NCBI GenBank assembly: GCA_964639525.1
Contig: CAZXDS010000002.1
Coordinates: 1-43,545 of the forward strand
DNA: 43,545 bases
Direction: 5' to 3'
From: an uncultured Melioribacteraceae bacterium
GTDB taxonomy: Bacteria > Bacteroidota > Ignavibacteria > Ignavibacteriales > Melioribacteraceae
Below are positions 4,218 to 26,770 of the stretch, in pieces. The stretch's first letter is position 1. Each line of letters starts with the position of its first letter. A program made the position numbers and the translations under genes. The notes under the pieces are model-generated. The model worked only from the letters and a program-made list of their open reading frames with translations, searched no databases and had not been told where the DNA came from.

Positions 4218-4340
4218 CAGTTTAACTTGTTTATTAAAATTGTTAATGTAAAATTAGTGATTTGTTTTATGTAACAACAACAGCCTGAATATTAAAGTCA
4301 TATTTAAATTGAGAGCTCTTAATAAAGTATTGTTTATATC

Positions 4341-4525
4341 CGGAAATTATGGGTGAACTATTAAAACCGTTGTCGCAGACCCGTATCGGGAAACGGTTGC
4401 AAATGTTCTAAGCTATCATTAACCGGTTTACCGGTTTTAAATTGCATAATTTAGCAAAAAATCTCCAAAGTTATTTGCGTAACTTGTTATTATAATTGAA
4501 GTTATTTTTTTACCCATAATTTATA
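4341..4525. mobile_element. Candidate 185-bp MITE-like insertion with a 9-bp flanking direct repeat
   Basis: The 11-bp inverted repeat AAATTATGGGT (4344-4354) / ACCCATAATTT (4512-4522) lies 3 nt inside identical 9-mers GTTTATATC at 4332-4340 and 4526-4534. Internal hairpins are AACCGTT..(CCCG-TAT-CGGG)..AACGGTT and AACCGGT-TT-ACCGGTT. Confidence 0.4.
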
Positions 4526-4540
4526 GTTTATATCAATATT

Positions 4541-5881
4541 TTACTGTCCCATCCTGTTACTTTTATTATTAAATCTATAAGCCAAAGTAACTGCAACCAA
4601 GGCAAGACTAACGGAAAGCCCGATCCAAACGCCGAAAGCTTTTAAATTAAAATGGAAACCGAGCAAATAGCCAAGTGGAATTCCAATAATCCAATATGAA
4701 ACAAATGTAATTAGTGTTGGAACTTTTGTATCTTTTAAGCCGCGTAAAATACCGAGTCCGGTTGCCTGGAGTCCGTCAAAGATTTGAAACAAAGCAGCAA
4801 GAATTAATAGACTCGAAGTAATTTTTATTACTTCAATATCTGAAATATATAATTCCGGCAGTAATTTTCTAAATGTAAGAAATACTAATGCGGAAATTGA
4901 CATAAATCCCATTGAAAGCAGCAGTGTAGAAAATCCCGCATGGCGTAAATCTTTTCTGCTGTTTTTACCAAGGCCAATAGCAACGCGAATTGTTCCGGCA
5001 GATGAGATGCCGAGAATAATCATATAAGTAATTGAAGCGAGATTCATTGCAATTTGGTGTGCTGCTAATTGAACTTTTCCCATCCAGCCAATCATTACAG
5101 CGGAAAATGCAAATGCAGCAACTTCAAAAAAATATTGAAATCCACTTGGCAAACCGATTGAAATTATTTTTCGTATAATTTGTTTATTAATTTTGTTTCT
5201 CCAAAACAAACGCAGATAATCTTTGTTCTTCACAGAAAAATGCACATACAAAATTATTGCAATTGCCATTCCGCTTCGTGTAAATAAAGTTGCGAAACCT
5301 GCACCGTTAAGTCCGAGTTTCGGCATTCCCAAATTTCCATAAATCAAAACCCAATTGATAAAAATATTTCCGATATTTGCTGCGAGAGCAATTATCATCG
5401 GTGGATTTACCATAGAAAGCCCTTCGAGATAATTACGGTAATTTTGAAAAAGCATCATTGGTAAAACCGACATTGCGAGTATTAGTAAGTAAGAACCGGC
5501 AAAGTTAGTAACATCAATCGCTTGGGAAAATACTTCCATATTTTGTGATATAAAATAAAGTGCAAGCGATATTATCGCCGAAAAACCAATTGAAACAATG
5601 AGTCCTTCCCGTAAAATTATTCCGCATTCCTCTTTGTTGTCGGCGCCACTTGAAATGGCAGTTAATGGTGTAACCGCTGAAGAAACTCCGTAACCAATAA
5701 CAAGGACAAGGAAAAAAAGACCGGTAACAAGTGAAGCGGCGGCGAGTGGTGCGGCACCAACACGCCCGACCATCATGCTGTCTTCAACTCCCATCATAAT
5801 ATGACCGAGCTGCCCAAGTGAAACGGGAGCCGCCAATTTAAATGTTCTTTTTATTTCGAATATAATTTTATTCTGCTGCAA
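4541..5881 (-). CDS. MATE family efflux transporter
   Basis: 446 aa with about 12 TM helices. The N-terminal LAAPVSLGQLGHIMMGVEDSMMVGRVGAAPLAAASL is typical of NorM/DinF-type MatE repeats. TTG start (no upstream in-frame ATG). Confidence 0.85.
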   Translation of the reverse strand: MQQNKIIFEIKRTFKLAAPVSLGQLGHIMMGVEDSMMVGRVGAAPLAAASLVTGLFFLVLVIGYGVSSAVTPLTAISSGADNKEECGIILREGLIVSIGFSAIISLALYFISQNMEVFSQAIDVTNFAGSYLLILAMSVLPMMLFQNYRNYLEGLSMVNPPMIIALAANIGNIFINWVLIYGNLGMPKLGLNGAGFATLFTRSGMAIAIILYVHFSVKNKDYLRLFWRNKINKQIIRKIISIGLPSGFQYFFEVAAFAFSAVMIGWMGKVQLAAHQIAMNLASITYMIILGISSAGTIRVAIGLGKNSRKDLRHAGFSTLLLSMGFMSISALVFLTFRKLLPELYISDIEVIKITSSLLILAALFQIFDGLQATGLGILRGLKDTKVPTLITFVSYWIIGIPLGYLLGFHFNLKAFGVWIGLSVSLALVAVTLAYRFNNKSNRMGQ

Positions 5882-8509: not shown

Positions 8510-8595
8510 AATAGAAAATTTTTTTGATGCTTTATTATTCAACTAATTTAATGTTCTGATTTATAGAGTATAAATTTTCTTCATAATTCATGTAT

Positions 8596-8714
8596 GAGCC
8601 CACTCTAAAAAGCCACAAACGGACTAAAGTCCGTTTGGGGAAGTTCGTTTTTAGTCTGTTCCCCCACGACTGAAGTCGTGGGTTAGTAAAAATATTACTT
8701 TTTAGAATGGACTC
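8596..8714. mobile_element. MITE copy 1 (119 bp; 17-bp TIRs; 6-bp TSD ATGTAT)
   Basis: The ends are GAGCCCACTCTAAAAAG and CTTTTTAGAATGGACTC. Flanking hexamers ATGTAT lie at 8590-8595 and 8715-8720. Internal hairpins are CAAACGGACT-AA-AGTCCGTTTG and CCCACGACT-GA-AGTCGTGGG. Confidence 0.72.
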
Positions 8715-8863
8715 ATGTATTGTGTATTGTTGCAAAATGGGAAGTTCTTAAAAATAGACAACGATTTTCAAATAATAGACTATTTATCTAATTTTATCGC
8801 TATTTTGTTTTGGCAAGATTTTTGCAGTTTAACTAATTATGAGAAACATCAATTTAAATTATA

Positions 8864-9631
8864 ATGACTAACAAATTATTAACAAAAATAAATTTTCTGC
8901 AAGTAATATTTATTTTGTTTTTGGGCTTGTTTTTTTTAAGCTCGTTTAAAACAAATGTTGCAAAAGTAACATCTCCAATTGAAGCAGATACGGCAATTTA
9001 TTTAAGGAACACAAATTACGGAAGACAAATTGCTCTCTTCAAGCTGAATAAATTGAAACATGCTGACATTGTTATGCTCGGCAATTCCTTAACGCACGGA
9101 GCAAATTGGAACGAACTTTTGGGAAGACAAAGTGTTGTGGAGGAAGGCATTGTAAGTGATGTAGTTGAAGGCTTTTATCATAGAATGAAGTATGTGTATA
9201 AACTAAAACCTAAAATTGTTTTTATACTTGGCGGATTAAACGATATATATAATTGGACTCCGGTTGAGGAAATTTATAAAAACTATATTAAAATAATTAA
9301 CGGACTTAAACTTCGGCGGATTATACCTGTAATACAATTAACTACTTATGCGACCGGTTATTATGCAAAGGATTGGTTAAAAAAAACTCATCCTGAAATT
9401 AATGCTAAAAACTATAATAATGGAAGAAACAACGAAGTTGACAAATTGAATAGATTATTAAGAAATTACGCTAAAGTGAACCATATTGACTTAATTGATT
9501 TAAATTCCAAAACTAGAAGAGGTCATTTTCTAAAACGGGAAATAACTCTTGACGGTGTTCATTTTAATGATAAAGGCTATAAAATTTGGGTAAAAGAAAT
9601 AAATAAAATTTTAAAAAAATATAAATTATAA
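8864..9631 (+). CDS. SGNH/GDSL-family hydrolase or acyltransferase, secreted or membrane-anchored
   Basis: 255 aa with an N-terminal hydrophobic segment. Block I MLGNSLTHG, block III GGLNDIY, block V DGVHFN. Confidence 0.75.
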   Translation: MTNKLLTKINFLQVIFILFLGLFFLSSFKTNVAKVTSPIEADTAIYLRNTNYGRQIALFKLNKLKHADIVMLGNSLTHGANWNELLGRQSVVEEGIVSDVVEGFYHRMKYVYKLKPKIVFILGGLNDIYNWTPVEEIYKNYIKIINGLKLRRIIPVIQLTTYATGYYAKDWLKKTHPEINAKNYNNGRNNEVDKLNRLLRNYAKVNHIDLIDLNSKTRRGHFLKREITLDGVHFNDKGYKIWVKEINKILKKYKL

Positions 9632-9645
9632 AGAAAGGAAATAAA

Positions 9646-11184
9646 ATGCAGAACGAAAAAAATTATTATAAAATCCCCTTGAAAATTGTAGTGTATATTA
9701 TTTTGCTGCTTGTAGGTATTTCTTACATTCCGCAAGATATAAATATTTTCGGCTATACTCCTAAACATTTGGATATTTTTGCTGACTTAAAAACTACCGA
9801 GATTCAGGACACTTCAACAATTGATAGAGAAACTAATAAAGAGGAAATAAAGAACGAGGGGACAGACGATGAATTTATTGATCCCGATTACGTAGCTCCG
9901 GACAGTGATTCTGAAATGCAGAATGATTCTTCCCTGCTTTTTGATTCTCAAAATAATGCACAGGTCAACAAAGCTTCATTCCCATTTTCTAATTTAATTG
10001 ATGAATTTGTCAATTCATATTTTGAGAATAGCGAGGCAAAAATTGACGGCATTAGAGCTTCAAGAGTAAAAACTCACCCTCAGCCAATTACAGGAAATGT
10101 TGGGCAGTTAAGATATTTTTTTGATGCACTAAAAAAAGCAAAAAAACAGAAAGTACGAATTGCCCACTATGGAGATTCGGCAATTGAAGGAGATTTAATT
10201 ACTGCAGATATTAGGCAAAATATGCAGAGTAAATTTGGAGGAAAAGGCGTGGGTTTTCTCTCCATTGTATCAAAGGATATTCAATTCAGAACAACAACTA
10301 AACAATCATTTTCACAAAATTGGGACTTTGCTTCGCTTTTTACAAGGAACCCCAAACATTATGAACTGGGAATAGCCGGAACAGTTTCAATTCCTAAAGG
10401 AAGCGCATGGGTCAAGTATAAAACTACGAGAAGATATAGAACGGTAAAAACTTTTAACGAAGCCCGCTTATTTTACACTGATGCCAAAAGAAATGCCAAA
10501 ATTACTTATTCGATTGACAATAAATCTGCAACATCTGCAAAATTGAAAACAGGCGGCAGAATTAATGAACTGACTATGGTTGCAGGGCATTCGGCTACAC
10601 AGATAAAAATAAATTTTCCCCAAAAGGAAATGGGGCATTTTTTCGGTGTTAGTCTTGAGGGCGGTAACGGTGTTTATGTTGATAACTTACCTTTACGAGG
10701 GAATACAGGGACTGATTTGCAGCAAATTCCCGAATCGGTTTACAAAGATTTTGGAAAAAAAATGAATTATAAACTTATTGTTCTCGAATTCGGGTTAAAC
10801 GCGGCGAGTTCAATAAAAGGTAATTTTAGTTGGTATGAAAGGGAAATGGAAAAAGTAATAAACAAACTGAAAAAAGCATTCCCCCAAACAAGCATAATCC
10901 TATTTAGTGTGCATGATAAAAGCAAAAAGAAAGGCAGCAAATTTGAAACGGATCCGGTAATTTTAAAATTAATCAAAGCGCAAAAAAACATTGTGCGGAA
11001 AACGAGAATTGCGTTCTGGAATATGTGGGAATCGATGGGTGGAAAAAATTCAATGCCGAATTGGGTAAATGCAAATCCGCCGATGGCATTTAAGGATTAC
11101 ACTCATTTTAACAATCAGGGAGCAAAAAAAATTGCTAAAATGTTTAGCGACGCTTTAATTAAAGCATATAATAAACATCGGTAA
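9646..11184 (+). CDS. Membrane-anchored SGNH-domain protein (AlgJ/AlgX/PatB/Ape1-like candidate)
   Basis: 512 aa with an N-terminal TM helix and an acidic linker. Block I AHYGDSAIEGD, block III EFGLNAAS, block V DYTHFNNQG. SD AAAGGAA upstream. Confidence 0.65.
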   Translation: MQNEKNYYKIPLKIVVYIILLLVGISYIPQDINIFGYTPKHLDIFADLKTTEIQDTSTIDRETNKEEIKNEGTDDEFIDPDYVAPDSDSEMQNDSSLLFDSQNNAQVNKASFPFSNLIDEFVNSYFENSEAKIDGIRASRVKTHPQPITGNVGQLRYFFDALKKAKKQKVRIAHYGDSAIEGDLITADIRQNMQSKFGGKGVGFLSIVSKDIQFRTTTKQSFSQNWDFASLFTRNPKHYELGIAGTVSIPKGSAWVKYKTTRRYRTVKTFNEARLFYTDAKRNAKITYSIDNKSATSAKLKTGGRINELTMVAGHSATQIKINFPQKEMGHFFGVSLEGGNGVYVDNLPLRGNTGTDLQQIPESVYKDFGKKMNYKLIVLEFGLNAASSIKGNFSWYEREMEKVINKLKKAFPQTSIILFSVHDKSKKKGSKFETDPVILKLIKAQKNIVRKTRIAFWNMWESMGGKNSMPNWVNANPPMAFKDYTHFNNQGAKKIAKMFSDALIKAYNKHR

Positions 11185-11227
11185 AGATTAAATATTTTAA
11201 ATTGCTTAATAATTTAATAGGGCTTTT

Positions 11228-12694
11228 ATGGAGGTTTTTTTACAAAATTTACTTGGACAGTTAAGTTATAATCCAACTGAACCGTTAATTTTTAATACCG
11301 GATTCTTTTTGTTTTTCTTTTTGTTCGTGCTGATATTCAATCAGTTTTTTGTAAATAATAAAAGGGCACAAATAATATTTCTGTTGTCGGAATCCCTTTT
11401 CTTCTATTACAAATCGAGCGGTATTTTCTTCGTCCTTGTAATAATCAGTTCTCTTATTGATTATATTGCCGGTAAATCTATTGCAGCTTCTGATTCTAAA
11501 GGCAGACGAAAATTTTACCTTATTATTAGTTTAATAACTAATCTCGGGATACTTGGTTATTTTAAATATACCAATTTCTTTCTAGACACATTAAATTCTA
11601 TCGGAGCCGGACATTTTGACATGATGGATATTTTCCTTCCGGTAGGAGTTTCCTTTTTTACTTTCCAATCAATGAGTTATACTATTGATATTTACCGCAA
11701 TAAGTTAAAGCCTGTGCATAATTTTTTCGATTTCGTGTTTTTTGTTTCATTCTTTCCGCAGTTGGTTGCAGGGCCAATTGTACGCGCAGCGGATTTTCTT
11801 CCGCAAATTCACAAACCAACCTTTGTTAGTAAAGCAGATCTTGGCAAAGCATTTTTCTTAATTATTGCGGGACTAATGAAAAAAGCAATTATTGCTGATT
11901 TTATAAGTATTAATTTTGTTGATAGAATTTTTCAGTGGCCCACACGTTTTACCGGAGTTGAAAATCTACTCGGTGTGTACGGTTACGTACTACAAATTTA
12001 TTGCGACTTTTCCGGCTACTCCGATATGGCAATTGGAATTGCATTGCTGCTCGGTTTCAGATTACCTGATAACTTTAATGCACCGTATAAATCCAAGACA
12101 ATAACTGAACTGTGGCAGCGGTGGCACATTTCACTTTCCTCCTGGTTACGAGATTATCTTTATATTCCGCTCGGAGGAAATAGGAAAGGGAACGTTAGAA
12201 CTTATATAAACTTAATGCTGACAATGCTGCTTGGCGGACTTTGGCACGGCGCTGCTTGGCGATTTATGTTCTGGGGAGGAATACATGGACTCGCTCTAGC
12301 TGTTGAACGATTTTTTCATATTCCTGAAAAAATTGAAAAAAAGAGATTTATTAAAATTATTGCTGTGATTATAACATTTCATATTTGGACAATTTCTCTC
12401 ATATTTTTTAGAGCACAATCTATTAGTTCTGCCCTTGATATTATTAATCAAATAGTAAATTATTTTAATGGAGCTGTTTTCTTCCAGTTTGTTAAAGCTT
12501 CACCTGTTGTTTTTGCTTTGATGATAATTGGTTACGTCTCCCATTATCTTCCAATAAAATGGGAATTGAAAATGAAAGACTGGCTTGCCGCAATGCCGAA
12601 TTGGGGAAGAGCTTTTGTGCTGGTTATTGTTATTTATATTGTTGCTCAATTTAAGTCTGCTGATATTCAGCCGTTTATTTATTTTCAGTTTTAA
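11228..12694 (+). CDS. MBOAT family O-acyltransferase (AlgI/PatA/DltB-like)
   Basis: 488 aa, polytopic. Signature WQRWHISLSSWLRDYLYIPLGGNRKG with the conserved His, plus downstream GGLWHGAAW. Confidence 0.9.
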   Translation: MEVFLQNLLGQLSYNPTEPLIFNTGFFLFFFLFVLIFNQFFVNNKRAQIIFLLSESLFFYYKSSGIFFVLVIISSLIDYIAGKSIAASDSKGRRKFYLIISLITNLGILGYFKYTNFFLDTLNSIGAGHFDMMDIFLPVGVSFFTFQSMSYTIDIYRNKLKPVHNFFDFVFFVSFFPQLVAGPIVRAADFLPQIHKPTFVSKADLGKAFFLIIAGLMKKAIIADFISINFVDRIFQWPTRFTGVENLLGVYGYVLQIYCDFSGYSDMAIGIALLLGFRLPDNFNAPYKSKTITELWQRWHISLSSWLRDYLYIPLGGNRKGNVRTYINLMLTMLLGGLWHGAAWRFMFWGGIHGLALAVERFFHIPEKIEKKRFIKIIAVIITFHIWTISLIFFRAQSISSALDIINQIVNYFNGAVFFQFVKASPVVFALMIIGYVSHYLPIKWELKMKDWLAAMPNWGRAFVLVIVIYIVAQFKSADIQPFIYFQF

Positions 12695-12699
12695 GTAAT

Positions 12700-12819
12700 G
12701 AGTCCACTCTAAAAAGCCCCAAACGGACTAAAAGTCCGTTTGGGGAAGTTCGTTTTTAGTCTGTTTCCCCACGACTGAAGTCGTGGGTTAGTCAAAATAT
12801 CACTTTTTAGAATGGACTC
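12700..12819. mobile_element. MITE copy 2 (120 bp; 17-bp TIRs; 6-bp TSD AGTAAT)
   Basis: The ends are GAGTCCACTCTAAAAAG and CTTTTTAGAATGGACTC. Hexamers AGTAAT lie at 12694-12699 and 12820-12825. About 95 percent identical to copy 1 by eye. Confidence 0.75.
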
Positions 12820-12932
12820 AGTAATTTTAAGGAAAAGGATTCCAAAATTGTTCTAAATAATAAGTTTTTTTCATATCTTTTTAAGTTAAAATTAAACTAT
12901 TTTTAATAATTGATTAATTTTATAAAACCGAT

Positions 12933-15908
12933 TTGCTATTATTTAGGAATTTCAAATTTTTGAAGAATTTCTTCCAAATATATTATTACAATTTTATCAG
13001 GCTGACAAAATATGTTTTTAGTCTATTTCTGTTTATAATATTTCTCTCCCCCAGTTATTCTCAGCAAAAAACATCTCAAATAGATGGTATGAAAAAGGCT
13101 GCGAAATCTCATATGAATGCCGGTAGGTACGGTGAAGCAATTGATTTACTGAATAAATATATTGCTCAAAGACCGCAACGTTCGGATGGATACCATATGC
13201 GCGGACTTGCTTTTGAACAGCGAACACAATACCAAAAATCTGTCCTCGATTTACGAAGGGCTTATAAACTTGCAAAAGGAAATACCAAATCAAAAATTAA
13301 AAAGGATTTGGATCGCGTAATAAAAATTTGGCATGCACAACTAAGGAAAAAAATTGAAGGGCATTTGCGAGAAATTGCTATCGATCCAACTAACCCGTAT
13401 AATTATCTTGAAATCGGGAAATCGTACAGGTGGTTAGAGGAATGGGGTAATGCCGAAGATTGGTATGATAAATATTTGGCAATGGATGACAATGCTTCTC
13501 CTGATGAAATTATTAGATATACTGTAATTTTAACTCATACTAAACATATTAAAAAAGGAGAGATAATTCTTAAAAAGTATGTTGAACGTTATCCTAGTGA
13601 TTGGCGCCTATGGAGTCGTTACGGATATTTTACAATGTGGTTGTCAAAATATAAAATTGCCAAAATAGCATTTGAAAATGCACTGGGATTCAAACCTTTT
13701 TTTAAGGAAGCTCAAGATGGTTTGGATATTGTAACAAGAAAACCATATGTAACTCAATACGATCCAAAATCATTTGAGAAAGAATACCCAATTGATAGAG
13801 AATATAGGTTGTTAAGAAAACATCCGAACAATGTTGATTTGAGATTTAAATTAGTGGATGAACTTATTAAAGCAGATAGAATGGAAGAAGCCTTGCAGCA
13901 GTTGGATATTATAGGCGAAGACCATTCAGATGATCCGAGATATGAAGATAAGTTAAAATATGTAAACGATTTTCGTGATAAAGTTTATAATGAAAAAATT
14001 GATTACTATACGAAAAAGTTAGAAAAGGATTCTACAAATAAGGAAGCTATAAGCAAACTTGCCGATTATTACAGCCGTCTTCAAAACTATGATGAAGCGT
14101 ATTCTCTATTGGATAATTATTTTAATAATGTTCCTGATGAAAAAAGTTCGACACTATTGTTTCAGTATGCAAAAGCCGCAGCTTGGGCAAGAGAATTTGA
14201 CAAAGCCATTCAAATAACGGATGGTTTGTTGACCGATAATCCCAATAATTTGGATTATCAACTTTTTCGTGCACAAGTATCCGTGTGGCATAATGTTGAT
14301 ATAGATTTGGCAAAACAATATCTGCAAAATGTTTTGGCAAAAAAGCCCAATAATTTTGAAGCTCAAATTGCGATGGCATCCTTATTGGTTACAGAAAAAA
14401 ATTTTGATGAAGCACAGCAGCACGCAGATATTGCAAAAAAACTATCGCCTAAGAATCATCAGAATGAAGTTTTACAGTCCCGAATTGATTTTGAAAAAAT
14501 GCGTGCTCAAGAAGAGAAACTTTATGCTATTTTAAACGATGGACGCGAAAAAGTTATTGATGGTGATTGCGAAGGAGCACTTCCGTTTTATGAAGAATAT
14601 TTAAGTAAAGCAGAACCAAATGATTTAATATCCAAAGAATACGGAGATGTTTTATTTTGTGCCAATCAATATGATAACGCTCTTGCAACATATGAAGATG
14701 TTCTTTCGAACGGATATAATTATGATGCAGCACTTAATCGTGGAAAAGTTTTATATGCGATGGGAGATTCACTCGCTTCTATCGAGGCTTTTCATCAGTT
14801 AGTAAAAGAAGAACCCGAGGAATTTGACCCTCGTTTGTATCTTGGTGATTCTTACGCAAAAGCATCTTTTTCTGACTCGGCTAGGACGGTTTACGACACT
14901 CTTTTAACTTGGGATCTTGATTCAACGGAAATTGCAATGGTTAACCAGCGAATCGGTTGGCTGCCTGTTACCGGAATTAATGCTATTCTATCAACTTTCC
15001 CCAATTACATCGGATTTGCTCCGTCTTTTTCATATTATGCGGATAATATAAGTTTTAAGTATTCTAATGTAGGAGCACGATTGGAACTCGGGATAACAGA
15101 GTTTTTATCTGCAGGTGTCTCGTTTTACAAGAATACTCTTTCTGCAAACCGGAATGGTTTAAGTGATTCACTTCTTACGCGACAAGCAAACACCGGAGTG
15201 TTTTTTACAGGAAACAGAACTTTCACAACTTTCAAGGGGCACGTATTTATAACGCTGAGTAAACGATTTCGTTTTGGCGGTGGGTTCGGTAGCATAAATA
15301 GTTCTGACGGTGTTAATGAAATTGCCAACGATTTTTTTATTAGCTACAAAAGAAAAGATGCTTTTAGTATAGCTGCTAACTATATGAGTACGGATGCAGC
15401 AGTAATTCTTTACTCTCCATACTTAATTGATACTCGTTTAATGGCAAAATTTTGGGGCATTGACGGTTCCTATCAGCACAAGTCAGGTATGAAAATTGCA
15501 TCACACTTCGACTATATTAGAGTAACCGATAGCAATGAAGGAAATAATTTTTGGGTGCGATTAGGTACATACTACTATGTTTATCTCAGTGCCGGATACG
15601 AGTACGCATATTCAAATTGGGCATACGATTCACCCTCTTATTATTCACCCGGTAATTTTGAATCGCACAGTATATGGATAGATGCTGAATTGGAAGACTC
15701 AAAAGAACTTAAACTTAATCTCGGTGGTAAAATCGGGTATATTCCTTCGAGCAGTTTTTTAATATTAAACGGATTTATTAGCGGCAGTTTCCGACCATCC
15801 TCTTTGCTTTCAATTACCGGAAAAATATCAGGCGGAAGTACAGCTCAAAATAATTCTTCGTATAAAAGCTTTTCAGCTTCGTTATCTGCTTATTGGACAA
15901 TTTATTAA
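12933..15908 (+). CDS. Outer-membrane TPR plus C-terminal beta-barrel protein (PgaA/BcsC/PelB-like architecture)
   Basis: 991 aa with signal-like FSLFLFIIFLSPSYS-QQ. About 650 aa of TPR-like repeats are followed by about 320 aa of alternating-hydrophobic beta-strand pattern ending YWTIY. The start is uncertain (no in-frame ATG before the signal peptide; TTG candidates). Confidence 0.6.
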   Translation: MLLFRNFKFLKNFFQIYYYNFIRLTKYVFSLFLFIIFLSPSYSQQKTSQIDGMKKAAKSHMNAGRYGEAIDLLNKYIAQRPQRSDGYHMRGLAFEQRTQYQKSVLDLRRAYKLAKGNTKSKIKKDLDRVIKIWHAQLRKKIEGHLREIAIDPTNPYNYLEIGKSYRWLEEWGNAEDWYDKYLAMDDNASPDEIIRYTVILTHTKHIKKGEIILKKYVERYPSDWRLWSRYGYFTMWLSKYKIAKIAFENALGFKPFFKEAQDGLDIVTRKPYVTQYDPKSFEKEYPIDREYRLLRKHPNNVDLRFKLVDELIKADRMEEALQQLDIIGEDHSDDPRYEDKLKYVNDFRDKVYNEKIDYYTKKLEKDSTNKEAISKLADYYSRLQNYDEAYSLLDNYFNNVPDEKSSTLLFQYAKAAAWAREFDKAIQITDGLLTDNPNNLDYQLFRAQVSVWHNVDIDLAKQYLQNVLAKKPNNFEAQIAMASLLVTEKNFDEAQQHADIAKKLSPKNHQNEVLQSRIDFEKMRAQEEKLYAILNDGREKVIDGDCEGALPFYEEYLSKAEPNDLISKEYGDVLFCANQYDNALATYEDVLSNGYNYDAALNRGKVLYAMGDSLASIEAFHQLVKEEPEEFDPRLYLGDSYAKASFSDSARTVYDTLLTWDLDSTEIAMVNQRIGWLPVTGINAILSTFPNYIGFAPSFSYYADNISFKYSNVGARLELGITEFLSAGVSFYKNTLSANRNGLSDSLLTRQANTGVFFTGNRTFTTFKGHVFITLSKRFRFGGGFGSINSSDGVNEIANDFFISYKRKDAFSIAANYMSTDAAVILYSPYLIDTRLMAKFWGIDGSYQHKSGMKIASHFDYIRVTDSNEGNNFWVRLGTYYYVYLSAGYEYAYSNWAYDSPSYYSPGNFESHSIWIDAELEDSKELKLNLGGKIGYIPSSSFLILNGFISGSFRPSSLLSITGKISGGSTAQNNSSYKSFSASLSAYWTIY

Positions 15909-26648: not shown

Positions 26649-26770
26649 GAGTCCACTCCGAAAAACTCCAAACGGGTTTTAACCCGTTTGGGATTGTATG
26701 TTTTTTATATCTTGTTTTCCCCACGTTGAAACGTGGGGTTAATGAAAATATTACTTTTCAGAGTGGACTC
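26649..26770. mobile_element. MITE copy 3 (122 bp; divergent subfamily; 6-bp TSD AAATAT)
   Basis: The ends are GAGTCCACTCCGAAAA and TTTTCAGAGTGGACTC. Hexamers AAATAT lie at 26643-26648 and 26771-26776. Internal hairpins are CCAAACGGGTT-TT-AACCCGTTTGG and CCCCACGT-TGAA-ACGTGGGG. Confidence 0.72.

Follow-up and report, generated by a model that had tools for sequence, protein, structure and literature searches.

A probable young miniature inverted-repeat transposable element directly behind an MBOAT gene in an uncultured Melioribacteraceae bacterium

The stretch of DNA analysed here, referred to as the window, comprises 43,545 nucleotides of contig CAZXDS010000002.1 from an uncultured Melioribacteraceae bacterium (assembly GCA_964639525.1). 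It carries a trio of SGNH, SGNH and MBOAT genes, and directly behind the stop codon of the MBOAT gene lies a strongly structured block of 120 bp with inverted repeats at its ends and the same hexamer on either side. With a probability of roughly 0.72, we regard this block as a young copy of a non-autonomous MITE (for miniature inverted-repeat transposable element), derived from an IS1182-like insertion sequence (IS), selfish, tolerated at a harmless 3' position, and with no host recruitment seen. The evidence comes from the anatomy of the element, from its relatives in this and other genomes, and from the positions and decay of its copies.

The element behind the MBOAT gene

The features of the locus are as follows, with the source of each in brackets.

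11228 to 12694, plus strand: MBOAT-family O-acyltransferase gene, last of the SGNH-SGNH-MBOAT trio (list of open reading frames, ORFs; Pfam PF03062, 100.6 bits)
12692 to 12694, plus strand: stop codon TAA of the MBOAT gene, its last A being base 1 of the left AGTAAT
12694 to 12699, no strand: left target-site duplication, AGTAAT (sequence)
12700 to 12819, plus strand: MITE copy 2, 120 bp, GAGTCCACTCTAAAAAG...CTTTTTAGAATGGACTC (sequence)
12700 to 12716, plus strand: left terminal inverted repeat, 17 bp, GAGTCCACTCTAAAAAG (sequence)
12717 to 12745, no strand: hairpin 1, GC-rich, with a stem of 13 bp and a loop of 3 nt (fold, terminator scan)
12768 to 12787, no strand: hairpin 2, CCCACGAC-TGAA-GTCGTGGG (fold)
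12803 to 12819, plus strand: right terminal inverted repeat, 17 bp, CTTTTTAGAATGGACTC (sequence)
12820 to 12825, no strand: right target-site duplication, AGTAAT (sequence)

The initial annotation had placed this element, the second of its family in the window, at 12700-12819 between AGTAAT hexamers at 12694-12699 and 12820-12825, with the left hexamer opening on the final A of the MBOAT stop codon (12692-12694) and the element therefore directly after the coding region. These coordinates agree with the sequence, and the ORF does end at 12694. Read along the locus, ...TTT TAA GTAAT is followed by GAGTCCACTCTAAAAAG ... CTTTTTAGAATGGACTC and then by AGTAAT TTTAAGG; with the element taken out, the joined flanks read ...TTTTAAGTAATTTTAAGG... 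Because the duplication starts at the last base of the stop codon, the MBOAT protein is untouched. Beyond the element, a TPR gene lies at 13089. The two terminal inverted repeats of copy 2 are complementary at 16 of 17 positions, and these ends are conserved over about 50 full copies. No ORF of 60 aa or more in the ORF list overlaps 12700-12819, and the element has no plasmid match. Short and non-coding, with inverted repeats, a duplication of fixed length, dispersed copies and an autonomous relative, copy 2 has the features by which a MITE is recognised.

A metagenomic homologue of the MBOAT gene (L013) reads ...TTTTAAGTAAT with a single AGTAAT, and continues into different downstream DNA that lacks the element. 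This is supportive of an insertion at the hexamer, but L013, the only homologue that a metagenome scan for an empty site in a conspecific strain turned up, is more distant and is no true empty allele. The filled junction is carried by a Logan contig from SRR6439371, which ends 29 nt into the element.

The fold predicted for the element, in which its ends pair together and two internal hairpins form, is very stable on the plus strand (-59.1 kcal/mol, z = -8.9 against shuffled sequences) and on the minus strand (-63.4 kcal/mol, z = -11.1). It returns the 13-bp stem first described for hairpin 1, at 12717-12745 with a 3-nt loop; the TTTTT run (12753-12757) that had been put 6 nt past this hairpin starts 7 nt after the stem, a trivial slip. 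On the plus strand, which is that of MBOAT, the stem is followed by AAGTTCG and then by TTTTT, and no U-tract begins within 2 nt of either hairpin, hairpin 2 being followed by UUAGUCAAAA. On the minus strand the stem of hairpin 1 runs directly into CTTTTTAG, a T-run that belongs to the left end repeat, and the arrangement of stem followed by CUUUUUAG occurs only there. Hairpin 2 has no T-tract after it on either strand. A terminator scan of the consensus rated hairpin 1 terminator-like on either strand when its rules were loose, but canonical only on the minus strand, so that in copy 2 the good terminator shape faces away from MBOAT. No Rfam family reached its gathering threshold anywhere in the window; the best sub-threshold matches scored 19.4 and 20.7 bits, where gathering scores are 37-55.

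The MITE family and its parent insertion sequence

To census the family, nhmmer was run iteratively on G000, the genome of the window, a draft of 3.35 Mb in 296 contigs with 33% GC. The search returned 106 hits, 50 of which span the whole model. About 35 partial hits end exactly at contig ends, which makes the repeat a major cause of breaks in the assembly. With flanks available for 49 full copies, the 6-bp duplication is perfect at 33 and has a single mismatch at seven more. Eighteen different hexamers are duplicated, with the consensus A-T-W-W-A-T: position 1 is A at 39 of 40 sites and position 6 is T at all 40. The most frequent targets are ATTTAT, ATTAAT and ATAAAT, and AGTAAT is a slightly off-consensus one. 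Subfamily A has 39 full copies and subfamily B has 10, and a genome of another genus (G021) contains about 75 copies of a 119-bp element resembling subfamily B. Copy 2 belongs to subfamily A; the remaining copies in the window are listed here.

8596 to 8714, plus strand: copy 1, subfamily A; duplication ATGTAT at 8590-8595 and 8715-8720
26649 to 26770, plus strand: copy 3, divergent subfamily B; duplication AAATAT; both hairpins kept through paired changes

Copies 1 and 2 share one orientation, and copy 1 is located upstream of the SGNH-SGNH-MBOAT trio. The two had been judged by eye to be about 95% identical with some six differences, and measurement gives 95.1% over 122 aligned columns, with six differences including one gap. 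The recent activity that had been read from this likeness holds up for copy 2 itself, which is 99.2% identical to the subfamily consensus (copy 1, 96.6%) and, with its perfect duplication and intact ends, is among the youngest insertions. The match to copy 1 does not bear on it, being simply the mean pairwise identity of subfamily A (94.9%; mean identity to consensus, 97.3%). The figures point to no special relationship between copies 1 and 2, and suggest neither as the source of the other.

Several other repeats touch the family. Two 73-bp deletion derivatives of the MITE in G000 (C246:56-128 and C34:274-346) retain both ends intact and have hairpin 1's left arm joined to hairpin 2's right arm. 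A second MITE of about 99 bp, with ends GAGGCTGTGTGAAAAGTC, sits in the hairpin 2 loop of several copies, in the order CCCACGACTGAAG, insert, TGAAGTCGTGGG (G000 C40:1145-1243, C84:1-80, C166:7350-7481, C292:1-60 and C38:18922-19019); this second element appears to target hairpin loops. Palindromes like hairpin 2 (CCCACGATTTTAATCGTGGG, or CCCACGACTGAAGTCGTGGG in relatives) are also found outside the MITE, in other composite repeats of G000 (C1:28015, C5:12245, C52:13676, C65:8999, C159:4302, C196:3087 and C230:1726) and in at least six other genera (relatives L003-L008), sometimes as 138-bp tandem units (G020). To judge from these occurrences, the palindrome behaves as a shared module that may pass between repeat families. 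The earlier candidate element of the window (4332-4534) does belong to a repeat family, a third one of mosaic build with 32 blastn hits, whose members share the motif CAGAYCCGTATCGGRAAA and occur also at G000 C4:13440-13690 and on C74, C43, C99, C152 and C163; one of them is nested within a subfamily-B copy of the MITE.

The ends of the MITE lead to a full-length IS. One genome per species was scanned for exact GAGTCCACTCYRAAAA, giving at least 119 matching loci; among the matches listed, nearly all are in metagenome-assembled genomes (MAGs) of Bacteroidota and neighbouring phyla, the lineages being Bacteroidales, Saprospiraceae, Chitinophagales, Cyclobacteriaceae, Balneolaceae, Ignavibacteria, Chlorobiota and Cloacimonadota. 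Most of the matches listed are MITEs of 66-286 bp that have the same ends and 6-bp A....T duplications around wholly unrelated interiors. The 16-17-bp end GAGTCCACTC[CT][AG]AAAA is almost invariant over such MITEs in several phyla (loci L022-L140), and the same 16-17-mer bounds IS copies of about 1.8 kb (1.78-1.87 kb) at L029, L060, L084 and L191. Three of the full-length copies are given below.

L029: 1857 bp, duplication ATTAAT
L060: 1778 bp
L084: 1872 bp, duplication ATTAAT

Within the window's bacterial family, an intact 1859-bp IS with the duplication ATTCAT is present in genome G057. Full-length IS homologues were also found in G046, and only a broken one in G021. Solo ends in G021 were considered as further IS copies and rejected, those fetched adjoining housekeeping genes and not IS.

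The ORFs of the parent IS encode 520-600 aa and match Pfam DUF772 and DDE_Tnp_1_6, both above their cut-offs. The best NCBIfam match of the parent transposase is NF033551 (IS1182), at 115.6 bits over residues 45-514 against a curated cut-off of 270, and it probably represents a distant IS1182-like lineage. Two parent transposases share only 37% identity despite nearly identical ends, and the conservation of the ends across parent lineages appears unusually strong. At L029 a hairpin abuts the T-run of the right end just behind the transposase gene, which suggests that hairpin 1 may descend from the IS's own terminator. A tblastn search of G000 with two parent transposases found no homologue. 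IS5/IS1182-type Pfam hits on contigs C228 and C46 of that genome were tried as the parent and set aside as degraded or unrelated fragments without the MITE ends. For G000 this means either a family that no longer moves or a parent that escaped assembly.

Insertion positions and decay of the copies

Gene calls in G000 rest on a heuristic that takes ORFs of 90 aa or longer from the first ATG; there are 2,632 of these, and together they span 85% of the genome. None of the 59 near-full copies lies in coding DNA, against 77% of ATWWAT hexamers. Of the 29 copies in spacers between tandem genes, the upstream stop is nearer than the downstream start for 21 (expected fraction from ATWWAT sites 0.455, p = 0.003). 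Distances of 10 nt or less separate nine copies from a stop, and no copy comes that close to a start. G021 behaves similarly: none of its 39 copies is in an ORF, 14 of 18 are nearer the stop, and 11 are within 30 nt of a stop against four within 30 nt of a start. The bias towards gene ends, for which a genome-wide census had been proposed at the outset, is thus real in G000 and replicated in G021.

The initial annotation had described copies 1 and 2 and the candidate element all as lying just 3' of stop codons. This stands for copy 2 (0 nt) and for 4332-4534, some 7 nt away from where minus-strand gene 4541-5797 stops, and does not stand for copy 1, which is 86 nt from its upstream stop. Copy 3 (26649-26770) sits in a divergent, promoter-side region, as do nine others, giving ten such copies over the two genomes. 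A 3' bias would, moreover, be expected just as much if selection acts against insertions into genes and promoters. Structure at the target does not appear in the census as an attractant: reconstructed empty sites average -7.8 kcal/mol and random ATWWAT sites -9.1 kcal/mol (p = 0.13), so the former are not the more structured, and the MITE lineage does not home to hairpins. At one site in G000 (C20:25735-25849) a copy overlaps the last 14 nt of a neighbouring heuristic ORF, and the insertion may have altered the C-terminus of that gene.

Orientation was scored against the gene that turns its 3' end to the element. It was the same in 20 copies and opposite in 28 in G000, and the same in 13 and opposite in 18 in G021, with no significant preference; orientation is random, so the asymmetric terminator shows no preference for facing the upstream gene. 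Substitutions per site relative to the consensus amount to 2.7% in the end repeats, 2.7% in the hairpin stems and 2.5% in the unpaired interior. Mismatches in the hairpins comprise 21 G:T, which still pair in plus-strand RNA, and 15 A:C, which do so in minus-strand RNA; there is no significant excess, and strand-specific selection on an RNA was not detected. No compensated pairs were found within the subfamily. Once inserted, the copies look to be decaying neutrally.

Classical intrinsic terminators seem to be uncommon in this organism, with a canonical hairpin and T-tract within 120 nt of the stop in 180 of 1339 genes of G000 (about 13%; downstream spacer of at least 40 nt). Native terminator-like sites within 120 nt of the stop are found at 14.8% of MITE-bearing genes, after removal of the element, and at 13.4% of others. 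The MITE neither replaces nor avoids native terminators.

Competing explanations and significance

The history we favour for copy 2 would begin with an IS1182-like IS of about 1.8 kb that has the same 17-bp ends and mobilises the MITE in trans. Its transposase would make a staggered cut at a 6-bp target, preferably A-T-W-W-A-T and in this case AGTAAT from the last base of the stop codon, and repair would duplicate the hexamer, with the stop codon and the MBOAT protein unchanged, as they are in the sequence. Selection, judging from the census, would remove copies that fall in genes or near gene starts, and the survivors would pile up behind stops. The two GC hairpins would belong to the design of the element itself, maintained between subfamilies by paired changes and subject to neutral decay once a copy is inserted. 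An MBOAT transcript running into the element would be expected to fold very stably, which could incidentally slow its 3' decay or terminate some transcripts.

The alternative that survives best, although we consider it unlikely, is that the element is a terminator or 3'-end stabiliser for MBOAT and the other genes it follows, retained because it is useful. The very stable fold on both strands, the terminator-like hairpin 1 and the 3'-end bias in two genomes argue for such a role, and with a canonical terminator-like site at some 13% of genes the added hairpins could matter. Terminator-like MITEs such as SPRITE are also on record in the literature (PMC10969869).

Several observations tell against a purely selfish, tolerated insertion. 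The MBOAT orthologues of sister genera are 59-65% identical and have the same C-terminal residues, and two of them (L142 and L144) have their own hairpin and T-run after the stop, whereas the terminator scan found no other terminator-like site in the spacer behind MBOAT here; in practice the element may be the only strong structure behind this gene. Its minus strand has the textbook shape of an intrinsic terminator, formed by hairpin 1 and the T-run of the end repeat. Both hairpins are preserved by paired substitutions between subfamilies A and B and the copies in G021, with A-T to G-C and C-G to T-A changes in hairpin 1, and with the stem of hairpin 2 rebuilt around CCCACG...CGTGGG. The proliferating lineage is probably, from these changes, under some selection for structure, which could be of use in transposition, keep transcription from entering or leaving the element, or help the element to be tolerated. 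The summed orientations, 46 opposite and 33 same, lean non-significantly towards a terminator that faces the upstream gene, and the heuristic ORF calls behind the census make small genes and true starts imprecise.

A useful terminator or stabiliser nevertheless fits poorly with other results. The T-run on the plus strand is 7 nt past the stem, too far for the classical mechanism, and the copies have no preferred orientation. Their stems decay like the unpaired parts, with no excess of G:T over A:C; native terminators are as frequent with the MITE as without it; and ten copies in two genomes are on the promoter side of genes. Conservation of the hairpins, the hairpin at L029 and the terminators of the orthologues do not outweigh the results on orientation, decay and native terminators, and we retain the reading of a tolerated, IS1182-like-derived MITE.

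Rather more doubtful still is a version in which the two hairpins, with their conserved structure, make the element an 'insulator' cassette against transcription from either side, by termination or by blocking, and in which it settles directly behind stops for that reason. On this account, and given canonical terminators at only about 13% of the host's genes, the roughly 100 copies would have shifted the 3' ends of many transcripts, that of the MBOAT acetylation operon among them.

Very little can be said for copies 1 and 2 as the two halves of a composite transposon-like unit at 8596-12819 with the SGNH-SGNH-MBOAT acetylation genes as its cargo. The outer repeats, left in copy 1 and right in copy 2, are correctly inverted and span 4,224 bp end to end, and the copies bracket exactly three functionally linked genes; but the perfect duplications are separate (ATGTAT and AGTAAT), with none shared by the outer flanks. 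Since each copy has its own duplication, the two are separate insertions and the composite is rejected. MBOAT orthologues are, besides, present in 22 of the 26 relatives' genomes searched, as for a resident gene. Copies 1 and 2, which lie in the same orientation, could still allow deletion by recombination, or mobilisation as a unit.

Equally improbable is a structured non-coding RNA gene or cis-regulatory RNA with no transposon involved. The strong fold and the compensatory stem changes between subfamilies speak for it, but the element, inserted in both orientations at some 50 unrelated loci, has inverted repeats, site-specific duplications of 6 bp, and ends identical to those of a transposase-bearing IS; the duplications and shared ends refute it. 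The Rfam hits, at 19-21 bits where gathering scores are 37-55, are sub-threshold and due to chance.

Among known repeats, the REP/BIME sequences of enterobacteria are GC-rich hairpins located just 3' of genes, and can protect the upstream mRNA from 3' exonucleases. The MITE resembles them in having GC-rich hairpins concentrated 3' of genes. REPs, however, lack terminal inverted repeats and target duplications and are moved by RAYT (Y1), whereas both features are found here together with a DDE-type parent. Small intergenic repeats of the Correia and SPRITE type, the latter covered as terminator-like elements in a review of prokaryotic MITEs (PMC10969869), likewise have a stable internal structure and can lie adjacent to genes, with hairpins that may be terminator-like or processed by RNase (PMC10969869, PMC3184786). 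There is no sequence relationship to the Correia-type repeats, which duplicate TA, and both the ends and the duplications differ; the effects of Correia-type repeats on transcripts have been shown experimentally, while the element described here is known from its sequence and has random orientation.

The closest parallel in kind is with the MITEs of 160 and 169 bp related to ISMac2, of the IS1182 family, in Methanosarcina acetivorans (Kamoun et al. 2013, PMC3852290). Like them, the element is short, non-coding and multi-copy, with ends that match an IS and short target duplications, and like the IS of those MITEs its parent encodes a transposase with DUF772 and DDE_Tnp_1_6 whose best family match is IS1182. 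It differs in its fixed 6-bp A-T-W-W-A-T duplication, where those of the ISMac2 MITEs are listed as 4 or 0 bp (PMC3852290), and in its hosts, which are Bacteroidota and neighbouring phyla and not M. acetivorans. The parent would also be of a distant lineage, its 115.6 bits against the IS1182 model falling far below the curated cut-off of 270. The kind of element is therefore a known one, an ordinary IS1182-like-derived MITE, recently inserted.

The value of the finding is mostly one of annotation. It accounts for the structured 120-bp block behind MBOAT and for about 35 contig breaks in the draft genome, and it traces a large set of MITEs, found in MAGs of Bacteroidota, Ignavibacteria, Chlorobiota and Cloacimonadota, back to a single IS1182-like lineage of transposases. 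Were the element in truth a portable terminator cassette, it would add one more case of repeats shaping transcript ends, as is established for other bacterial repeats.

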